Below, piece by piece: positions 9,433-64,000 of a stretch of 64,000 bases of DNA. The translations under genes and the position numbers were made by a program. Positions within the stretch are counted from its first letter, which is position 1, and each line of letters starts with the position of its first letter. The notes under the pieces are model-generated. The model was given only the letters and a program-made list of their open reading frames with translations, was not told the DNA's origin and ran no database searches. The stretch comes from Squalus acanthias (Eukaryota): NCBI GenBank assembly GCA_030390025.1, contig CM059432.1, positions 84,384,001 through 84,448,000 of the forward strand. Reading direction: 5' to 3'.

Positions 9433-12400
9433 TTTTTTTTATTCGTTCATGGGATCTGGGCGTCGCTAGCAAGGCCAGCATTTATTGCCCATCCCTAGTT
9501 GCCCTTGAGAAGGTGGTGGTGAGCTGCCTTCTTGAACCGCTGCAGTTCGTGTGGTGAAGTTACTCCCACAGTGCTGTTAGGTAGGGAGTTCCAGGATTTT
9601 GACCCAGCGACGATGAAGGATCGACGATATACTTCTAAGTCAGGATGGTGTGTGACTTGGAGGGGAACTTGGAGGTGGTGATGTTCCCTTGCGCCTGCTG
9701 CCCTTGTCCTTCTAGATGGAAGAGGTCGCGGGTTTGAGAGGTGCTGCCGAAGAAGCCTTGGCGAGCTGCTGCAGTGCATCTTGTAGAGGGTACACACTGC
9801 AGCCACGGTACGCCGGTGGTGGAGGGAGTGAATGTTTAAGGTGGTGGATGGGGTGCCGATCAAATGGGCTGCTTTGTCCTGGATGGTGTCGAGCTTCTTG
9901 AGTGTTGTTGGAGCTGCACTCATCCAGGCAAGTGGAGAGTATTCCATCACACTCCTGACTTGTGCCTTGTAGATGGTGGAAAGGCTTTGGGGAGTCAGGA
10001 GGTGAGACACTCGCTGCAGAATACCTAGCCTCTGACCTGCTCTTGTTGCCACAGTATTTATGTGGCTGGTCCAGTTAAGTTTCTGTTCAATGGTGACCCC
10101 CAGGATGTTGATGGTGGGGGATTCTGCGATTGTAATGTCGTTGAATGTCATGGGGAGGTGGTTAGACTCTCGCTTGTTGGAAATAGTCATTGCCTGGCAC
10201 TTCTGTGGCGCGAATGTTACCTGCCACTTATCAGCCCAAGCCTGAACATCGTCCAGGTCTTGTTGCATGCTGGCATGGACTGCTTCATTATCTGAGGAGT
10301 TGTGAATGGCGCTGAACATTGTGCAGTCATCAGCGAACATCCCCATTTCTGACCTTATGTTGGAGGGAAGGTCATTGATGAAGCAGCTGAAGATGGTTGG
10401 GCCTAGGACACTGCTCTGAGGAACTCCTGCAGCGATGTCCTGGGGCTATGATGATTGACCTTCAATCACCACAACCATCTTCCTTTGTGCTAGGTATGAC
10501 TCCAGCCAGTGGAGCATTTTCCCCCTGATTCCCATTGACTTCAGTTTTACTAGGGCTCCTTGATGCCACACTCGGTCAAATGCTGCCTTGATGTCAAGGG
10601 CAGTCACTCTCACCTCACCTCTGGAATTCAGCTCCTTTGTCCATGTTTGGACCAAGGCTGTAGTGAGGTCCGGAGCTGAATAGTCTTGGCGGAACCCAAA
10701 CTAGGCATCAGTGAGCAGGTTATTGGTGAGTAAGTGCCGCTTGATAGCACTGTCGATGACACCTTCCATCACTTTGCTGATGATTGAGAGTAGACTGATG
10801 GGGCGGTAATTGGCCGGATTGGATTTGTCCTGCTTTTTGTGGACAGGACATACCTGGGCCATTTTCCACATTGTCGGATAAATGCCAGTGTTGTAGCTGT
10901 ACTGGAACAGCTTGGCTAGAGAGGCGGCTAGTTCTGGAGCACAAGTCTTCAGCACGATAGCCGGGATGTTGGCGGGGCCCATAGCCTTTGCTGTATCCAG
11001 TGCTCTCAGCCATTTCTTGATATCGCATGGAGTGAATCGAATTGGCTGAAAACTGGCTTCTGTGATAGTGGGGACCTCGGGAGTAAGCCGATATGGATCA
11101 TTCACTCGGCACTTCTGACTGAAGATGGTTGCAAACGCTTCAGCCTTGTCTTTTACACTCACGTGCTGGGCTCCACCCTCATTGAGGATGGGGATATTCA
11201 TGGAGCCTCCTCCTCCCGTTAGTTGTTTAATGGTCCACCACCATTCACGACTGGATGTGGCAGGACTGCAGAGCTTTGATCTGATCCGTTGATTGTGGGA
11301 TCGCTCAGCCCTGTCTATAGCATGCTGCTTCTGCTTTTTAGCACGCATGTAGTCCTGTGTTGCAGCTTCCCCAGGTTGGCACCTCATTTTTAGGTACGCC
11401 TGGTGCTGCTCCCGGCATGCTCTTCTGCACTCCTTATTGAACCAGGGTTGGTCCCCTAGCTTGGTTGTAATGGTAGAGTGAGGGATATGCCGGGCCATGA
11501 GGTTACAGATTGTGGTGGAATACAATTCTGCTGCTGCTGATGGCCCACAGCGCCTCATGGATGCCCAGTTTTAAGCTGCTAGATCTGTTCTGAATCTATC
11601 CCATTGAGCATGGTGGTAGTGCCACACAACACAATGGAGGGTGTCCTCAGTGTGAAGATGGGACTTCGTCTCCGCAATGACTGTGCGGTGGTCACTGCTA
11701 CCAATGCTGTCATGGACAGATGCATCTGCGACAGGTAGATTGGTGAGGACGTGGTCAAGTAGGTTTTTCCCTCGTGTTGGTTCTCTCACCACCTGTCGCA
11801 GGCCCAGACTGGCAGTTATGTCCTTCAGGACTCGGCCAGCTCAGTCAGTCGTGGTGCTACCGAGCCACTCTTGGTGATGGACATTGAAGTCCCCCACCCA
11901 GAGTACATTCTGTGCCCTCGCTACTCTCAGTGCTTCTTCCAAGTGGTGTTCAACATAGAGGAGTACTGATTCATCAGCTGAGGGAGGGCGGTAGGTGGTA
12001 ATCAGCAGGAGGTTTCCTTGCCCATGCTTGACCTGAAACCATGAGACTTCATGGGGTCCGGAGTCAATGTTGAGGACTCCCAGGACCACTCCTTCCCGAC
12101 TGTATCATCACCCCTGGTGGGTCTGTCCTGCCGGTGGGACAGGAGATACCCAGGGATGGTGATGGAGGAGTTTGGGACATTTGCTGAAAGGTATGATTCT
12201 GTGAGTATGACTATGTCAGGCTGTTGCTTGACTAGTCTGTGGGACAGCTCTCCCAATTTGGCACAAGTTCCCAGATGTTGGTGAGGAGGTCTTTGCAGGG
12301 TCGACTGGGCTGGGTGTGCCATTGCCGTGTCCGTGTCCGGTGCCGAGGTCGATGCCAGGTGGTCCATCTGGTTTTGTATTGGTTAGTTACAACTGAGTGA

Positions 12401-12695
12401 CTTGCTAGGCCATTTCAGAGGGCACTTAAGAGTCAACCACATTGCTGTGGGTCTGGAATCATATATAGGCCAGACCAGGTCAGGACGGAAGATTTCCTTC
12501 CCATTAGTGAACCAGATGGGTTTTTACGACAATTCGATAGTTTCATGGTTACCATTACTAATACTAGTAATTATTATTCCAGATTTATTTAATTAACTGA
12601 ATTTAAATTCCCCAGCTGTTGTGGTGGTCTCTGGATCATTAGTCCAGGCCTCTGGATTACTAGCCCAGTGACATTCCCACTACGCTACCATTCCC
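9433..12695 (-). mobile_element. CR1-group LINE with a single APE-RT reading frame (several stops/frameshifts), no ORF1, tRNA-like head, A-tail
   Basis: LTESYL, TYRPP, VGDFN, SDH (APE); NYRPISLL, LDIKAAFD, FADD (RT); YKAQVRSVMEY, SLHHRR; T8 at 9433-9440 is the tail. Confidence 0.88.
12375..12695 (-). promoter_or_regulatory. tRNA-like/SINE-like 5' region with a Pol III A box; B box not evident in this copy
   Basis: Minus strand TGGTAGCGTAGTGG (12691-12678) fits the A-box TRGCNNAGYGG; no A-tail between it and the LINE ORF. Confidence 0.65.
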
Positions 12696-14273: not shown

Positions 14274-14518
14274 ATTGTCATTACGTAGCATTCCCAACAC
14301 TCCCGCTTTCGGCGATAGGTTTCCCACACGCTGCTCCTTGCAGCTCGGGCGAAGCAGTCCTTGTCTGCACAGTGGCCCGCCTGGCAACCAAACTGCTTTG
14401 TCTGAGCCCGCCTGTGCCCTGCTATTTGGAAACATCGCTTCGTTGCCAGTTGTGAGGATGACAGCATCGGGGCCGTCAAAAATCGCCTGGAATCTCCATG
14501 AGTTTTAAGAGAGCCACT

Positions 14519-14887
14519 GGAGGTGGGAGATAGAGACAGGAACACAAACTGCGGCGGTGGGGGGAGAGGGAGACAGAAAGACAATCTGGGGGGGAGGGGA
14601 GAGAGACAGAAACAAACTGGGGGGTGGGGCGGGAGAGAGACAGAAACACAAACTGGGGGGGGGGAGAGAGAGAGAAACACAAACTGGGGGAGAGAGAGAC
14701 AGAAACACAAACTGGGGGGGAGAGAGACAGAAACACAAACTGGGGGGGAGAGAGAGAGAAACACAAACTGGGGGGGAGAGAGACAGAAACACAAACTGGG
14801 GGGGAGAGAGAGAGAAACACAAACTGGGGGAGAGAGAGACAGAAACACAAACTGGGGAGAGAGAGACAGAAACACAAACTGGGGGGG
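14519..14887. repeat. G-rich ~28-bp minisatellite, block 1
   Basis: (G5-10)AGAGAGACAGAAACACAAACT tandem units. Confidence 0.97.
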
Positions 14888-16352: not shown

Positions 16353-17042
16353 GGGGAGAGACAGAAACACAAAATGGGGGGGAGAGACAGAAACTCAAAC
16401 TGGGGGAGAGAGAGACAGAAACACAAACTGGGGGGGGAGAGAGACAGAAACACAAACTGGGGGGGGAAGAGAGACAGAAACACAAACTGGGGGAGAGAGA
16501 GACAGAAACTCAAACTGGGGGAGAGAGAGACAGAAACACAAACTGGGGGGAGCGAGAGACAGAAACACAAACTGGGGCAGAGAGACAAAAACACAAACTG
16601 GGGGGGGAAGAGAGACAGAAACACAAACTGGGGGAGAGAGAGACAGAAACTCAAACTGGGGGGGGAAGAGAGACAGAAACACAAAATGGGGGGGAGAGAC
16701 AGAAACTCAAACTGGGGGAGAGAGAGACAGAAACACAAACTGGGGGGAGCGAGAGACAGAAACACAAACTGTGGGGGAGAGAGAGAGACAGAAACACAAA
16801 CTGGGGGGAGAGAGACAGAAACACAAACTGGGGGGAGCGAGAGACAGAAACACAAACTGGGGTGGAGAAACAGAAACACAAACTGGGGGGGCGAGAGAGA
16901 CAGAAACACAAACTGGGGGGGCGAGAGAGACAGAAACACAAACTGGGGGGCGAGAGAGACAGAAACACAAACTGGGGGGGCGAGAGAGACAGAAACACAA
17001 ACTGGGGGGTGAGAGAGACAGAAATACAAACTTGGGATGGGG
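16353..17042. repeat. G-rich ~28-bp minisatellite, block 2 (a last unit resumes at ~22757-22788)
   Basis: Same unit as block 1. Confidence 0.97.
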
Positions 17043-18497
17043 TGTAGGCTTTGCAAAGTCCCCCAGAAACTTGTATAGAACCCTAAAGGGGGTGAGTTTT
17101 GGATCTGAACACGAATTTGGAATGATGGGACCTAAATGAAGGAATTTGAGGTCAAAACCTCAGTTTTGGACTTTAAGGATCAGGGGAAGAAAACCCTGAG
17201 GAAAAAGACTTTGGATAAGACACCTTTTTAAAAGGGCCATTGGGTAAACCTGCAGTCACAGAAACACAGGCTCCAGGAAAGGGTGTGGTGAGGCAGTGGA
17301 CAGCTTTTGGGTATTGGGACCGAGCCAAGCTGTCTGGGAGATGTTTGCACTGCAATCCAACGAAGGAGGAAGAGCCTCACCCAAAACCTCACATACACAT
17401 CCAAAAAAATGAATAAACCAAAACCCCTTTTGAAATCCCCAGGTCCAAACAGAATTCCTAACAATAAAACGTCCAGTACACAGCTTCACAGCCTGTCATC
17501 CCATCAAAAACCAATCAGCCAAGAAGATCGACAGGATGCAAACCATCCCAAAAAAAACATTTGACACTTACAGAACCCATTAAAGACATACATAAAGATA
17601 GAAGTGCTAGACCCAGTCAAGAAACCCAAAACATGAGGACAATTCAAACTCCGATTAAACAACAGATTGACAGGATGGAGCTATCCTGAAAATCACTTCA
17701 CACATTTACAAAACCAGTTAACATGCTAGTAAAGTCGTTACTGTTAACGAGGTCTTACAATGACCGGGATTTGATTTGGTTTTGATAAGGCCACTTCAAT
17801 TTAGTATAATTGAAGGCCCATCAAGCAGTTCTCCAGTAAAACAGTTCAAGTTCAACAGAAGGCAGTTCTGCAGTTCAATCGAAAAGCCTGTTTTCAGCAG
17901 AAGTCGGGGCTGGAGTTACAGAGTTCAGGAGAAGCAAGGAAGAAGCAGCAAGGAGTTCCACAGTTCTGCAAGAAGGCAGTTCCACAGCTCGGAAGAAGAC
18001 AGTTTAAACAGAGGCAGAGTTCAACAGAAAGAAGTACAACAAAGAAGGCCAGCAGTTCAAGAGACCAGAGCGACCGCCTCAGTGACCATCGGACACCTCG
18101 CGGCAACAAGGGCCTTATGAAACCTTTTACTCAAAAGACTCTAAACCCTAACTCTCAACTGTCAAGAACTGTCATTTGGTGAGCATTATCCCTGATCTTC
18201 TCGAATCAAACCTAGCTAGGCAGTGGGATTTGGGAGGGATAAGGGTTTTTGTATATTATAATTCTCCCTCGCCTGTACCGTGTGTTCCCCAACCTGTGTT
18301 TAAGCATTAAGTGTGTTTTAAGTTTGTTACCTTTTTCTTTAATAAAAGTCAAAATTCTTTCATCAAAACCTGTTGTCTACTGCACCTTTGTTCGCAACCC
18401 CCAAATAAGTCCAAGGTCTAGAACCAGGGGCGTGGGAGCGATTCGAACCACTCACTGAGTCAGAGGTGAACCTGACCCCCACACACCACCCCCTACA
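17043..18497 (+). repeat. 5' LTR, 1455 bp
   Basis: TGTAGG...CCTACA termini, AATAAA at 18341, followed by TA and the PBS. Confidence 0.9.
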
Positions 18498-20958: not shown

Positions 20959-22166
20959 AAATCCTCAGCCAGCAGCAGCTGTGGCAGACGCACAAGCTGC
21001 AGCGGCAGGGACAGTGTGCTGTTTCACAGGAGAGAACCCTCCACCGATTACATGGGACTCAAGCACACCCCCAGTGGCCAGAGTCCTAAGAAGGTCTCCC
21101 CACACACCACAGCCAAGGCTACTGTGGCCACAGGTGTATCAGTTTACAGGGTCCCACCCAAAGAGGGCTGCAACCCGAAAAAGAGCACCCAAGAGCAGGG
21201 AGCGTTCTAAAGTTGGGGATCCCCAGCCTACAGCCTCCAACAGTGAGGGACTCACAGGAGAGGTAGTACTGGGAGAAGAGAGAGAGAAGGCTCCCCAGCC
21301 TGCTGCCTCAGGCTAGGAGGAGCTCACAGATATGAACGAGGGCGCTGCAGCCACACCAAAGGGGGTAGTGTGCTGCAGCACAGGAGTCGGCTGGGATAAT
21401 AAGATACCCCCAGTGGTTTTGAGGAAGGCCTTCTGGGTCCGGCGGTACAGGCTGCACTACACCCAGGTGTACAAGCCATCCAGAGGCCACAAAAGGCAGA
21501 GGCTAAACAGAATTTAGCCCTGCCGTCCAGAGACGGGCGGAGAATGGACAGAGTTTTAATGTATTTTAGTGTTTTACAGTTTGGTAGTTTTAGGATTTTT
21601 TAGAATTAAGGATTTTAGTGAGTAAGTTTGAAAGTTTCTCGCGAATCGATCACCTGTCCAGCCAGAGAACCTTCTCGGGACATGGCTGTCTGTTTTGTGT
21701 GTCCCTACAGAAAGGAAATCGGCATGAGAAAGGTCCTGCTCCTGCTCGCCCTGGTAGGGGTGAGCATCGGTGACTTGCTGTGCACAAAATGCAAGGGAAA
21801 GGGCAGAGTGCTCCGATCCCGACATGAGAAAGCATGGGACCAGCATTGCAATAAAGTCTATGGCCAGGTTTAGGGCAAGCCTTAATTTGTTTTTATTAAA
21901 ATGAATAAAATTTTGTGATCGTGTATTATTTTTACTATGTATATACTGTGTTTTCCAAGTGGTGCAGGGGTGTTGGACTCCCTCCGTGCTTGGATGTGTA
22001 TGTAAAGATTGATTTTACCTGTATGTACCTAAAACACCACATTTAAAGGGGAATGTATGTTTTTTTTTTAGTTTAGCTAATTATAGGGGAAGGTTGGTTT
22101 TCGGGGATCATAAATTTTGCTCACCTGGTCATGATACTAAGTCAAGTTCAGTATCACATGGGGGAG

Positions 22167-22692
22167 TGTAGGCTTCGCAAAATCCCCCAGAAACTTGTAT
22201 AGAACCCTAAAGGGGGTGAGTTTTGGATCTGAACACGAATTTGGAATAATGGGACCTAAATGAAGGAATTTGAGGTCCAAACCTCAGTTTTGGACTTTAA
22301 GGATCAGGGGAAGAAAACCCTGAGGAAAAAGACTTTGGATAAGACACCTTTTTAAAAGGGCCATTGGGTAAACCTGCAGTCACAGAAACACAGGCTGCAG
22401 GAAAGGGTGTGGTGAGGCAGTAGACAGCTTTTGCATATTGGGACCGAGCCAAGCTGTCTGGGAGATGTTTGCACTGCGATCCAACCAAGGAGGATGAGCC
22501 TCACCCGAAACCTCACAAACACATCCAAAAAAATGAATAAACCAAAACCCCTTTTGAAATCCCCAGGTCCAAACAGAATTCCTAACAATAAAACGTCCAG
22601 TACACAGCTTCACAGCCCGTCATCCCATCAAAAACCAATCAGCCAAGAAGATCGACAGGATGCAAACCATCCCAAAAAAAAACATTTGACAC
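22167..22692 (+). repeat. 3' LTR truncated after ~525 bp, preceded by a polypurine tract (GGGGGAG, 22160-22166)
   Basis: Matches the 5' LTR from TGTAGG to CATTTGACAC, then diverges. Confidence 0.9.
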
Positions 22693-60708: not shown

Positions 60709-62961
60709 TCACGTCATGTATCGTGACATAAACCCAAGATCCCGATTGAGACCGTCTTCATGAGTTCGGAACTTGGCTATCAGTTTCTGCTCGATGATTT
60801 TGCGTTGTCGTGTGTTTCTAAGGTTGCCTTGGAGAACGCTTACCCGCAGATCCGAGGCTGAATGTCCTTGACTGCTGAAGTGTTCCCCGACTGGGAGGTA
60901 ACAATCCTGCCTGGCGATTGTTGCGCGGTGCTCGTTCATACGTTGTCTCAGTGTCTGCATGGTCTCGCCGATGTACCATGCCGCGGTGCATTCTTTCCTG
61001 CAACGTATGAGGTAGACAACGTTGGCCGAGTCACATGAGTATGTACCATGTACCTGGTGGGTAGTGTCCTCACGTGTGATGGTGGTATCTGTGTTGATGA
61101 TCTGGCATGTCTTGCAGAGTTTGCCATGGCAGGGTTGTGTGGTGTCGTGGTCGCTGTTATCCTGAAAGCTGGGTAATTTGCTGCGAACGATGGTACTTCT
61201 GAGGTTAGGCGGCTGTTTGAAGGCAAGTAGTGGAGGCGTGGGGATGGCCTTAGCGAGGTGTTTGTCGTCATCGATGACATGTTGAAGGCTGCGAAGAACA
61301 TGTCGTAGTTTCTCCGCTCCGGGGAAGTACTGGACGACGTAGGGTACCCTGTTGGTTGTGTCCCGTGTTTGCCTTCTGAGGAGGTCTATGCGATTTTTCG
61401 CTGTGGCCCGTCGGAACTGTCGATCGATGAGTCGAGCGTCATATCCCGTTCTTACGAGGGCGTTTTTCAGCGTCCGTAGGTGTCCATCGCGTTCCTCCTC
61501 GTCTGAGCAGATCCTGTGTATTCGCAGGGCTTGTCCATAGGGGATGGCTTCTTTAACATGGTTAGGGTGGAAGCTGGAGAAGTGGAGCATCGTGAGGTTG
61601 TCCGTGGGCTTGCGGTAGAGTGAAGTGCTGAGGTGTCCGTCTTTGATGGAGATTCGTGTGTCCAGGAATGAGACCGATTCTGAGGAGTAGTCCATGGTGA
61701 GTTTGATGGTGGGATGGAACTTGTTTATGTTATCGTGTAGTCTTTTCAGTGATCCTTCGCCATGGGTCCAAAGGAAGAAAATGTCGTCGATGTATCTGGT
61801 GTACAGCGTTGGCTGGAGGTCCTGTGCAGCGAAGAAGTCTTGCTCGAACTTGTGCATGAAGATGTTGGCGTATTGGGGTGCGAATTTGGTCCCCATGGCT
61901 GTTCCGTGTGTTTGGGTAAAAAAATGGTTGTCGAAGGTGAAGACATTGTGGTCAAGGATGAAGCGGATGAGTTGTAGGATGGCGTCTGGAGATTGGCTGT
62001 TGTTGATGTTGAGTACTGAGGCTGTTGCAGCGATGCCGTCATCGTGGGGGATACTGGTGTAGAGTGCCGATACGTCCATCGTGGCAAGGAGTGTTCCTGG
62101 TTCAACTGGTCCGTGGGTGCTGAGTTTCTGTAAGAAGTCTGTAGTGTCGCGACAGAAGCTGGGGGTTCCCTGTACGATGGGTTTCAGAATGCCCTCGACG
62201 TATCCAGAGAGGTTCTCACACAGGGTTCCATTGCCTGATACGATAGGACGTCCGGGTGTGTTGGCTTTGTGTATCTTTGGGAGGCAGTAGAAGTCTCCCA
62301 CGCGGGGAGTACGTGGGATGAGAGCGCGTAGGATGTTTTGAAGGTCTGGATCGAAGGTCTTGATCAGTCTATTGAGTTGGCGGGTGTGTTCTTTGGTCGG
62401 ATCTGCGGGTAGCTGTCTGTAGTGTTCCTGGTTGTCCAGTTGTCGGTATGCTTCTTTACAATAGTCCGTTCTGTTCTGTATGACGATGGCTCCTCCTTTG
62501 TCCGCTGGTTTGATGACAATGTTGCGGTTGGTCTTGAGAGCGTGGATGGCGTTGCGTTGTGCTCGGGTGACATTCTGGACTGTCTTGTGAGTGCGGCTGA
62601 TGAATCTGGCGTTGATGCATTTCCTGACAGCTTGAGCATACATGTCAAGCTTGGGGCAGCGACCCTCCGGAGGGGTCCAGTTTGACTCTTTTTTCTTCGG
62701 TTGCTGCACTGCGAGTCCCTCTGTCTGCTGTTCTGGATCATTGATTGTCTCATTGGGTTTGTTGCTGACATCTTGGGATTTGTGGAAGTATTCCCGGAGC
62801 CTCATTCTCCTGATGAATTCCTCCGTGTCTGCCGCGAGACCGATGGGGTCCATTTTGGTGGTTGGGCAGAACTTGAGCCCTAGGGCGAGAACTTTGATTT
62901 CGTCTGGTTGAAGGGTGTGGTCCGACAGGTTGACGATGGTTGCAACCACAGGGAAGTCCAT
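60709..62961 (-). CDS. Penelope RT-GIY-YIG endonuclease, uninterrupted 750 aa from the ATG at 62961 (probably lacks the native N-terminus)
   Basis: IVNLS, KPADKGG, LPKIHK, GRPIVS, DVSALYT, GTAMG, RYIDD, CHGKLCKTC, NVVYLIRC..YIGET, GLN. Confidence 0.95.
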   Translation of the reverse strand: MDFPVVATIVNLSDHTLQPDEIKVLALGLKFCPTTKMDPIGLAADTEEFIRRMRLREYFHKSQDVSNKPNETINDPEQQTEGLAVQQPKKKESNWTPPEGRCPKLDMYAQAVRKCINARFISRTHKTVQNVTRAQRNAIHALKTNRNIVIKPADKGGAIVIQNRTDYCKEAYRQLDNQEHYRQLPADPTKEHTRQLNRLIKTFDPDLQNILRALIPRTPRVGDFYCLPKIHKANTPGRPIVSGNGTLCENLSGYVEGILKPIVQGTPSFCRDTTDFLQKLSTHGPVEPGTLLATMDVSALYTSIPHDDGIAATASVLNINNSQSPDAILQLIRFILDHNVFTFDNHFFTQTHGTAMGTKFAPQYANIFMHKFEQDFFAAQDLQPTLYTRYIDDIFFLWTHGEGSLKRLHDNINKFHPTIKLTMDYSSESVSFLDTRISIKDGHLSTSLYRKPTDNLTMLHFSSFHPNHVKEAIPYGQALRIHRICSDEEERDGHLRTLKNALVRTGYDARLIDRQFRRATAKNRIDLLRRQTRDTTNRVPYVVQYFPGAEKLRHVLRSLQHVIDDDKHLAKAIPTPPLLAFKQPPNLRSTIVRSKLPSFQDNSDHDTTQPCHGKLCKTCQIINTDTTITREDTTHQVHGTYSCDSANVVYLIRCRKECTAAWYIGETMQTLRQRMNEHRATIARQDCYLPVGEHFSSQGHSASDLRVSVLQGNLRNTRQRKIIEQKLIAKFRTHEDGLNRDLGFMSRYMT

Positions 62962-64000
62962 CGTCAACCTGTCGGACCACACCCTTCAACCAGACGAAAT
63001 CAAAGTTCTCGCCCTAGGGCTCAAGTTCTGCCCAACCACCAAAATGGACCCCATCGGTCTCGCGGCAGACACGGAGGAATTCATCAGGAGAATGAGGCTC
63101 CGGGAATACTTCCACAAATCCCAAGATGTCAGCAACAAACCCAATGAGACAATCAATGATCCAGAACAGCAGACAGAGGGACTCGCAGTGCAGCAACCGA
63201 AGAAAAAAGAGTCAAACTGGACCCCTCCGGAGGGTCGCTGCCCCAAGCTTGACATGTATGCTCAAGCTGTCAGGAAATGCATCAACGCCAGATTCATCAG
63301 CCGCACTCACAAGACAGTCCAGAATGTCACCCGAGCACAACGCAACGCCATCCACGCTCTCAAGACCAACCGCAACATTGTCATCAAACCAGCGGACAAA
63401 GGAGGAGCCATCGTCATACAGAACAGAACGGACTATTGTAAAGAAGCATACCGACAACTGGACAACCAGGAACACTACAGACAGCTACCCGCAGATCCGA
63501 CCAAAGAACACACCCGCCAACTCAATAGACTGATCAAGACCTTCGATCCAGACCTTCAAAACATCCTACGCGCTCTCATCCCACGTACTCCCCGCGTGGG
63601 AGACTTCTACTGCCTCCCAAAGATACACAAAGCCAACACACCCGGACGTCCTATCGTATCAGGCAATGGAACCCTGTGTGAGAACCTCTCTGGATACGTC
63701 GAGGGCATTCTGAAACCCATCGTACAGGGAACCCCCAGCTTCTGTCGCGACACTACAGACTTCTTACAGAAACTCAGCACCCACGGACCAGTTGAACCAG
63801 GAACACTCCTTGCCACGATGGACGTATCGGCACTCTACACCAGTATCCCCCACGATGACGGCATCGCTGCAACAGCCTCAGTACTCAACATCAACAACAG
63901 CCAATCTCCAGACGCCATCCTACAACTCATCCGCTTCATCCTTGACCACAATGTCTTCACCTTCGACAACCATTTTTTTACCCAAACACACGGAACAGCC
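61897..64000. repeat. Long inverted repeat: 61897-62939 pairs with 62958-64000
   Basis: Position x mirrors 125897-x; mirrored ORFs in the track are identical in several frames. Confidence 0.97.
62936..64000 (+). CDS. Second Penelope ORF copy (MVATTGKSIVNLSDH...), open to the window edge
   Basis: Mirror of the minus copy; ATG at 62936 in frame; absent from the ORF track because it has no stop in the window. Confidence 0.85.
   Translation, partial: MVATTGKSIVNLSDHTLQPDEIKVLALGLKFCPTTKMDPIGLAADTEEFIRRMRLREYFHKSQDVSNKPNETINDPEQQTEGLAVQQPKKKESNWTPPEGRCPKLDMYAQAVRKCINARFISRTHKTVQNVTRAQRNAIHALKTNRNIVIKPADKGGAIVIQNRTDYCKEAYRQLDNQEHYRQLPADPTKEHTRQLNRLIKTFDPDLQNILRALIPRTPRVGDFYCLPKIHKANTPGRPIVSGNGTLCENLSGYVEGILKPIVQGTPSFCRDTTDFLQKLSTHGPVEPGTLLATMDVSALYTSIPHDDGIAATASVLNINNSQSPDAILQLIRFILDHNVFTFDNHFFTQTHGTA

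Follow-up and report, generated by a model that had tools for sequence, protein, structure and literature searches.

A dead elasmobranch Zenon LINE with a SINE-type 5' end, its RNA probably made by RNA polymerase III and probably translated without an AUG

The divide between LINEs and SINEs is a divide between coding elements transcribed by RNA polymerase (Pol) II and non-coding elements transcribed by Pol III. On one side of it, Zenon LINEs (CR1 group) have no ORF1 and end in a poly(A) tail (PMC13343379); published consensuses cover five elasmobranchs, the dogfish (SquAca, with SquAca_Zenon-1/2/3 named), white shark (CarCar), whale shark (RhiTyp), catshark (ScyCan) and stingray (HypSab) (Stuart et al. 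2026). On the other side, the DeuSINEs SacSINE1 and LmeSINE1 of sharks, skate, chimaera and coelacanth consist of a tRNA head, a conserved body and a tail shared with a LINE (PMC5499810, PMC4824008), as do the SINEs found here. They are non-coding, and the homology to a LINE that these papers report is that of the tail to L2-2_CM (Luchetti et al. 2017; Nishihara et al. 2016). The function of the conserved central domains of SINE superfamilies is there called unknown (PMC4824008).

The window, 64,000 nucleotides of Squalus acanthias DNA (GCA_030390025.1, contig CM059432.1, positions 84,384,001 to 84,448,000), contains an element with features of both. We read it, from sequence comparison, as a dead elasmobranch Zenon copy with a SINE 5' end, whose RNA was probably made by Pol III and probably translated without an AUG.

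The copy in the window and its family

Read along the minus strand from 12695 to 9433, the element presents an A box, then a non-coding stretch of ~320 nt, a broken frame for APE-RT and, at its 3' end, AATAAA with poly(A) (Table 1). A preliminary description of this DNA had singled out the A-box head as joined straight to the APE-RT frame, and so it is: no poly(A), target-site duplication (TSD) or ORF1 lies between them. The absence of ORF1, which it had also pointed out, is real but ordinary for Zenon, as is the poly(A) (PMC13343379). The window copy is dead: it differs from the family majority by indels of 14, 2, 8, 19, 1 and 10 nt, and its frame has four in-frame stops. Its B box is missing because of the private 14-nt deletion between 12628 and 12627, and tRNA searches find no match in this copy's own head. 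A TATTT at 10185 is a private mutation, like the T4 (TTTT) listed in Table 1. The conserved body is presumably, judging by its structure, the Deu-type body of SacSINE1.

Table 1. Features of the element, in coordinates of the window
Feature	Position	Strand	Remark
Zenon LINE copy, full-length, decayed	9433..12695	minus	96.7% identity to the 3313-nt family majority
tRNA-derived head, including a duplicated ~21-nt segment	12622..12695	minus	5' end of the element is 8 nt ahead of the A box
A box	12677..12687	minus	
Site of private 14-nt deletion, B box lost	12627..12628	minus	B box present in the family
Conserved body, common to LINE and SINEs	12389..12523	minus	
Long helix, 12518-12514 pairing with 12457-12453	12453..12518	minus	one pair with a two-sided change in 6/20 rows (older SINE subfamily)
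Hairpin with 7-nt anticodon-like loop CUAGCAA	12393..12418	minus	putative partner GCUA at 12380-12377, mutated in the window copy
Arg-rich leader of the open frame, without in-frame ATG	12290..12386	minus	19-nt deletion in the window copy
Single APE-RT frame	9495..12386	minus	973 codons in the majority; broken in the window copy
Lone sense T4	11049..11052	minus	private mutation; majority has GTCTTC in 73 copies
3' tail common with SINEs	9433..9508	minus	AATAAA 9486-9481, poly(A) 9440-9433

The junction of head and ORF is not unique to this locus. A query spanning head and junction has 9734 candidates in the 3.7-Gb genome, with the junction covered in 40 of 40 scored, and the head is joined to the ORF in all 39 other copies fetched, which have one sharp shared 5' end and unrelated flanks. 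With the head alone as query, 27 of 29 other loci continue into the ORF and the remaining two are internal deletions; with the ORF alone, the first bases of the element are reached in 15 of 30 loci, the other 15 ending inside the head or the leader. Exact 20-mers number 8967 for the body end, 6186 for the start of the endonuclease and 60964 for the tail. In thousands of copies the insertion is a single unit made up of head, body, ORF and poly(A); a consistent TSD, sought in 20 full-length copies, was not found. A majority sequence was taken from 27 near-full-length copies (that of the window and 26 of the 39 others, with shorter and interrupted copies and one duplicate excluded). It is 3313 nt long, with one 973-codon frame, a poly(A) tail and neither ORF1 nor T4, and the copies are 93.5-97.6% identical to it.

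By eye, the first ~340 letters of SquAca_Zenon-1 (3314 nt; PMC13343379) match this majority. In Heptranchias, Pristiophorus, Heterodontus and Carcharodon, protein fragments give matches of 66-88%, and a tree of reverse transcriptases, built without a named Zenon protein, separates the shark LINE from two CR1 controls and sets it near a lancelet protein and unnamed single-ORF proteins (90/89, an open node); a search of viral contigs gave no relative. The match to the named consensus, the single APE-RT ORF without ORF1 and the poly(A) tail class the window copy as an elasmobranch Zenon LINE. Annotated shark proteins in public databases, P0102, P0108, P0114, P0116, P0041 and P0048, include in-frame pieces of the same LINE, and these are probably gene-model errors.

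Variants that copies share in the ORF are synonymous in 17 of 34 cases and include no stops, as against 455 of 1778 synonymous and a further 63 stops among singletons. This contrast means that the source lineages needed the protein: it was under purifying selection in them. That selection, together with a majority open for 973 codons, speaks against the element being a non-autonomous 'long SINE' mobilised by a separate headless or ORF1-bearing Zenon, a reading with which the lack of an intact ORF among the fetched copies (longest open piece 587 aa) would agree. A separate Zenon of that kind is also missing where it was looked for, since 129 upstream flanks have no alternative 5' region in common, and a search with a diverged piece of the ORF for an older subfamily gave 30 loci, all of the same family and all without an alternative 5' end. 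The 'long SINE' reading is largely refuted and we give it very little credence.

Other repeats in the window are described here for completeness. At 61897-64000 there is an inverted duplication, near-perfect at 99.3% over 2.1 kb and centred near 62950, that extends past the window edge and surrounds an open frame of 758 aa (60709-62985, minus strand) in which an RT domain is recognised; it looks like either a young retroelement that has inverted arms or a fold-back of the assembly. Two 530-bp direct repeats (17039-17567 and 22163-22692, 97% identical, 5.1 kb apart) are LTR-like; Pfam gives no match for either of the two longest frames between them, of 426 and 211 aa. Two arrays of one 28-29-bp G/A-rich minisatellite, at 14516-14887 and 16353-17036, adjoin this pair.

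The tRNA-type head and the shortage of sense-strand T runs

The B box that the window copy has lost belongs to the family. Among 83 head-bearing LINE copies the A box is intact in 69, the B box in 68 and both in 57. An intact head (copy L034) scores 22.3 bits (E 0.034) against the Rfam tRNA model, with a 22-nt insertion and below the gathering score of 29, and ARAGORN finds no tRNA in the head; the 5' end of the LINE sits at about tRNA position 0/+1. In the first 400 letters of the five published consensuses, compared by eye, the A box is present in all five and a canonical B box in four, T4 is absent and the body is nearly unchanged, while the spacer has diverged. The head is not evident, again by eye, in the first 400 letters of the hagfish and coelacanth Zenon 5' ends. 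Among metagenome and GTDB contigs, 124 relative loci were also compared with the A/B-box head and body, and no homology to either was found; the closest non-shark relatives, P0130, P0131, P0001 and P0103, are represented by protein sequences. Conservation of the boxes could also stem from exchange with SINEs.

We regard transcription of elasmobranch Zenon by Pol III as likely. In the manner of a type-2 unit, TFIIIC and Pol III would initiate at the first G and transcribe 3.3 kb, until a T-run in the flank is met. The placing and the retention of the boxes go against an element transcribed by Pol II: with its 5' end just 8 nt ahead of the A box, the unit has no space for another promoter, and the boxes are kept across sharks and a ray while the spacer diverges. 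In such a Zenon the captured SINE 5' end would be a passenger, or a Pol II promoter or enhancer, and the poverty in T would be compositional; LINEs are, in general, transcribed by Pol II (PMC5786205), and the 3' AATAAA and poly(A) of this one are as in other Zenon.

TTTT and TVTTT are the shortest functional Pol III terminators in mammalian cells (PMC8466645). The preliminary description had counted one sense T4 against about a dozen A4 runs, and the count is exact for T4, with 13 A4+, 11 C4+ and 8 G4+ beside it; CR1 pieces in the window are T4-rich, as it had also said, with 15, 13 and 4 sense T4 (1.6-5.1/kb against 0.31/kb in the LINE copy). Its own caveats, a T-poor strand, no clear B box and a dead copy, were equally well placed, seeing that a single T4 in this copy is within chance (mean 4.3 and P=0.07 in mononucleotide shuffles; mean 1.8 and P=0.45 in a dinucleotide model). 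In the majority, with seven TTT, the zero count for T4 stands, but it is not significant when taken alone: synonymous shuffles, which hold protein and codon usage constant, average 1.8 (P=0.118). For T4 and TVTTT combined, a test picked after the T4 result was seen and showing a modest effect, there are 0 against 3.5 in shuffles (P=0.012). Corresponding counts for A, C and G give P=0.89, 0.45 and 0.17, and the antisense strand of the majority has 20 such terminators. TTT runs number 5 against 11.2 in synonymous shuffles (P=0.005).

In the same genome, two CR1 families, taken as majorities of 10 copies apiece, have 13 T4+TVTTT against 15.2 in shuffles and 19 against 15.6, and at the level of copies the open-frame pieces of the Zenon family have 0.095 T4/kb, compared with 3.9 in the genome's other LINEs. 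All 68 of the 124 relative loci with frames of at least 700 aa have at least 9 T4+TVTTT; these relatives are T-richer (23-36%), and some are depleted relative to shuffles too (lowest ratio 0.56). For TTT, observed/expected is 0.35 in the shark majority and at least 0.69 in the 68 relatives. Phe makes up 1.85% of the shark frame against 2.8-6.7% in the 68 relatives, with a lancelet relative lower still at 1.54%. Depletion of T runs is thus real, specific to T on the sense strand, and modest once composition is fixed. Its survival under control for protein and codons, and its confinement to T and to one strand, go against the Pol II-transcribed Zenon, in favour of which stand the T4 count by itself and a strand with only 19.6% T; we consider that alternative unlikely.

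Two further observations belong to this subject. An RTE-like ORF piece of the same genome (L281, one short piece of 906 nt) is likewise free of T4 and poor in TTT (observed/expected 0.61), which counts against the Pol III reading. A T-run ahead of the poly(A), at least T2 long in 9 of 25 LINE ends, was considered as the rudiment of a T+ SINE-type terminator and rejected because headless relatives have it too.

The 5' end at about tRNA position 0/+1 would also be expected if the element were read through by host Pol II, with the tRNA-like head as an RNase P-type processing signal that sets the 5' end and the body as an IRES. HDV-like ribozymes set the 5' ends of R2 and L1Tc, and uncapped, IRES-translated non-LTR RNAs are described (PMC6765202); the lack of an AUG, referred to below, would suit such an RNA. 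The head, with its 22-nt insertion, makes no good cloverleaf, and processing leaves the avoidance of terminators unexplained, so that we judge this reading improbable. A search for an HDV-like ribozyme in the element found none, and a search against Rfam gave no ribozyme or IRES match. The 5' UTRs of L101 and L180 and positions 1-80 of L103, all headless invertebrate Zenon-like elements, have a common motif (GTAGTGCCA...GCGC...CCCTGC...GAGGCC), also without an Rfam match, that could be a ribozyme or a translation element.

The start of the coding frame

The frame of the majority opens past a stop at the body end; its first Met is residue 287, and there is no in-frame Met upstream of the endonuclease, a position shortly before the first endonuclease strand at which relatives do have one. 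What stands there instead is an Arg-rich leader. An out-of-frame ATG lies 28 nt into it in most copies and in all five published consensuses, which leaves room for frameshifting or reinitiation: whichever the promoter, this ATG (present in 70 scored copies and the five published 5' ends) would open a 48-codon mini-ORF, with ORF2 reached by -1 frameshifting or by reinitiation. The mini-ORF scheme strikes us as somewhat unlikely. An older source lineage, marked by linked head and ORF variants in 20 copies, has ATA in place of the ATG; the closest non-shark relative, too, has an Arg-rich leader that lies in the frame of the endonuclease; and 9 of 12 leader CpGs are at Arg codon positions 1-2 of that same frame. 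Differences in leader length are multiples of three in 41 of 67 copies, a bias confounded by 3n microrepeats.

A second candidate for the start is the hairpin at the body end. Its eight pairs are each retained in 95-99% of ~100 LINE copies, and a C/T polymorphism (G-C/G-U) leaves the pair intact. GCUA follows 12 nt downstream, in the ORF frame. Hairpin and GCUA are identical in all five published 5' ends, by eye, the bases flanking GCUA being variable and length differences downstream of it being multiples of three. The pairing of loop and GCUA is broken in 5-23% of copies per pair, with no compensatory change, and the chance of the hairpin/GCUA motif is 0.045 per 3.3 kb for a pattern defined post hoc. 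Folding of head and body (z -0.6 to 0.15), and of the hairpin (z -0.9 to 1.0), shows no excess over shuffled sequences, and RNAalifold on the decayed copies is weak (-7.8 kcal/mol). A GTGACT/AGYCAC pseudoknot was rejected, one of its pairs being unpaired in 18 of 20 rows. The hairpin loop (12412-12400) is similar to the anticodon arm in the tRNA head of the same element (12666-12655), and since one motif scan matched both sites, the hairpin may be a duplicated anticodon arm.

In dicistrovirus IGR IRESs, PKI mimics a tRNA-mRNA pair by the first codon (PMC5759354), and the shark hairpin with its GCUA looks alike. These IRESs have a larger PKII/PKIII ribosome-binding domain and initiate without factors; the shark element offers one enclosing helix with a single two-sided change. 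By this analogy tRNA-mimic initiation at hairpin and GCUA is plausible, and a weaker claim than transcription by Pol III. The structured body would bring the uncapped RNA to the ribosome, where the anticodon-like hairpin may pair with GCUA in the manner of the dicistrovirus elements; ORF2p would then copy its own RNA by target-primed reverse transcription.

SINE derivatives and known systems

A pattern for direct head-to-tail junctions has 115 matches in the genome against 1 for the control. The matching SINE copies consist of the LINE head and body fused to its last 75 nt; they are ~400-450 nt long and non-coding, beside a LINE of 3.3 kb with a selected frame. Of 30 loci sampled in order of position by the body-end motif, 18 prove to be LINEs; the other 12 are SINEs with at least six breakpoints, and 7 of these retain 10-20 nt of LINE leader. 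SINE heads bear diagnostic bases of an older LINE subfamily. Several breakpoints, retained leader and older-subfamily bases mark the recent same-head SINEs as deletion products of the LINE, which thus yields SINEs repeatedly, each by a single deletion. Coverage of the element, with head-to-tail joints that skip about 2.85-2.93 kb, is also given by assembled contigs from four sequencing runs presumed to be RNA; these contigs carry no information on polymerase, strand or start.

The preliminary description had derived the same-head SINEs from the LINE by deletion, which holds for recent ones but probably not for the first fusion. There the LINE probably captured an older SINE head, rather than the SINE being born from the LINE, in view of SacSINE1-type elements in chimaera and coelacanth (PMC5499810), Deu bodies that are much older (PMC4824008), bivalve Deu SINEs partnered with CR1-Zenon (PMC11481361), and invertebrate relatives with T-rich headless 5' ends and a normal Met. 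The capture would have happened by template switching in an ancestral Zenon, before the shark-ray split, with the 5' part taken from the SINE that parasitised it. The full combination, an autonomous coding Pol III element, with a dicistrovirus-like tRNA-mimic IRES in the Deu-type body as a ribosome-binding module and with LINE and SINE interconverting by capture and deletion, is put forward tentatively, as a possibility suggested by the sequences.

The family, then, is known and its architecture is undescribed. The main text of PMC13343379 nowhere mentions tRNA, Pol III or SacSINE, nor does it describe the head, the avoidance of terminators or the missing AUG, and the openly readable papers searched do not describe any autonomous LINE that carries a Pol III head. 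If the proposal is true, the family would amount to a natural Pol III mRNA, its selected 973-codon ORF having kept a Pol III head in sharks and rays alike. A single clone makes testable both the translation of an uncapped Pol III RNA and the role of conserved SINE central domains.

Each of the nearest described systems has a part of this arrangement. The Persaeus SIDEs of lepidopteran Zenon are likewise internal-deletion derivatives; they are described as having no tRNA homology and no Pol III promoter (PMC6740152), whereas the shark SINEs carry a tRNA head. In the bipartite SINEs of the Bov-tA, RTE and Vingi types (Kojima 2018, PMC5786205), body and tail are the 5' and 3' ends of a LINE, as in the SINEs found here; their tRNA head stands on the non-autonomous unit, the LINE is assumed to be transcribed by Pol II, and the cases are of RTE and Vingi only, whereas in the shark it is the autonomous element that carries the head. 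R2 and L1Tc, whose uncapped coding RNAs have IRES-like 5' ends, offer a parallel for cap-free translation (PMC6765202). The R2 RNA is co-transcribed by Pol I and freed by a ribozyme; the shark element, without an Rfam ribozyme match, would instead owe its 5' end to a promoter captured from a SINE.
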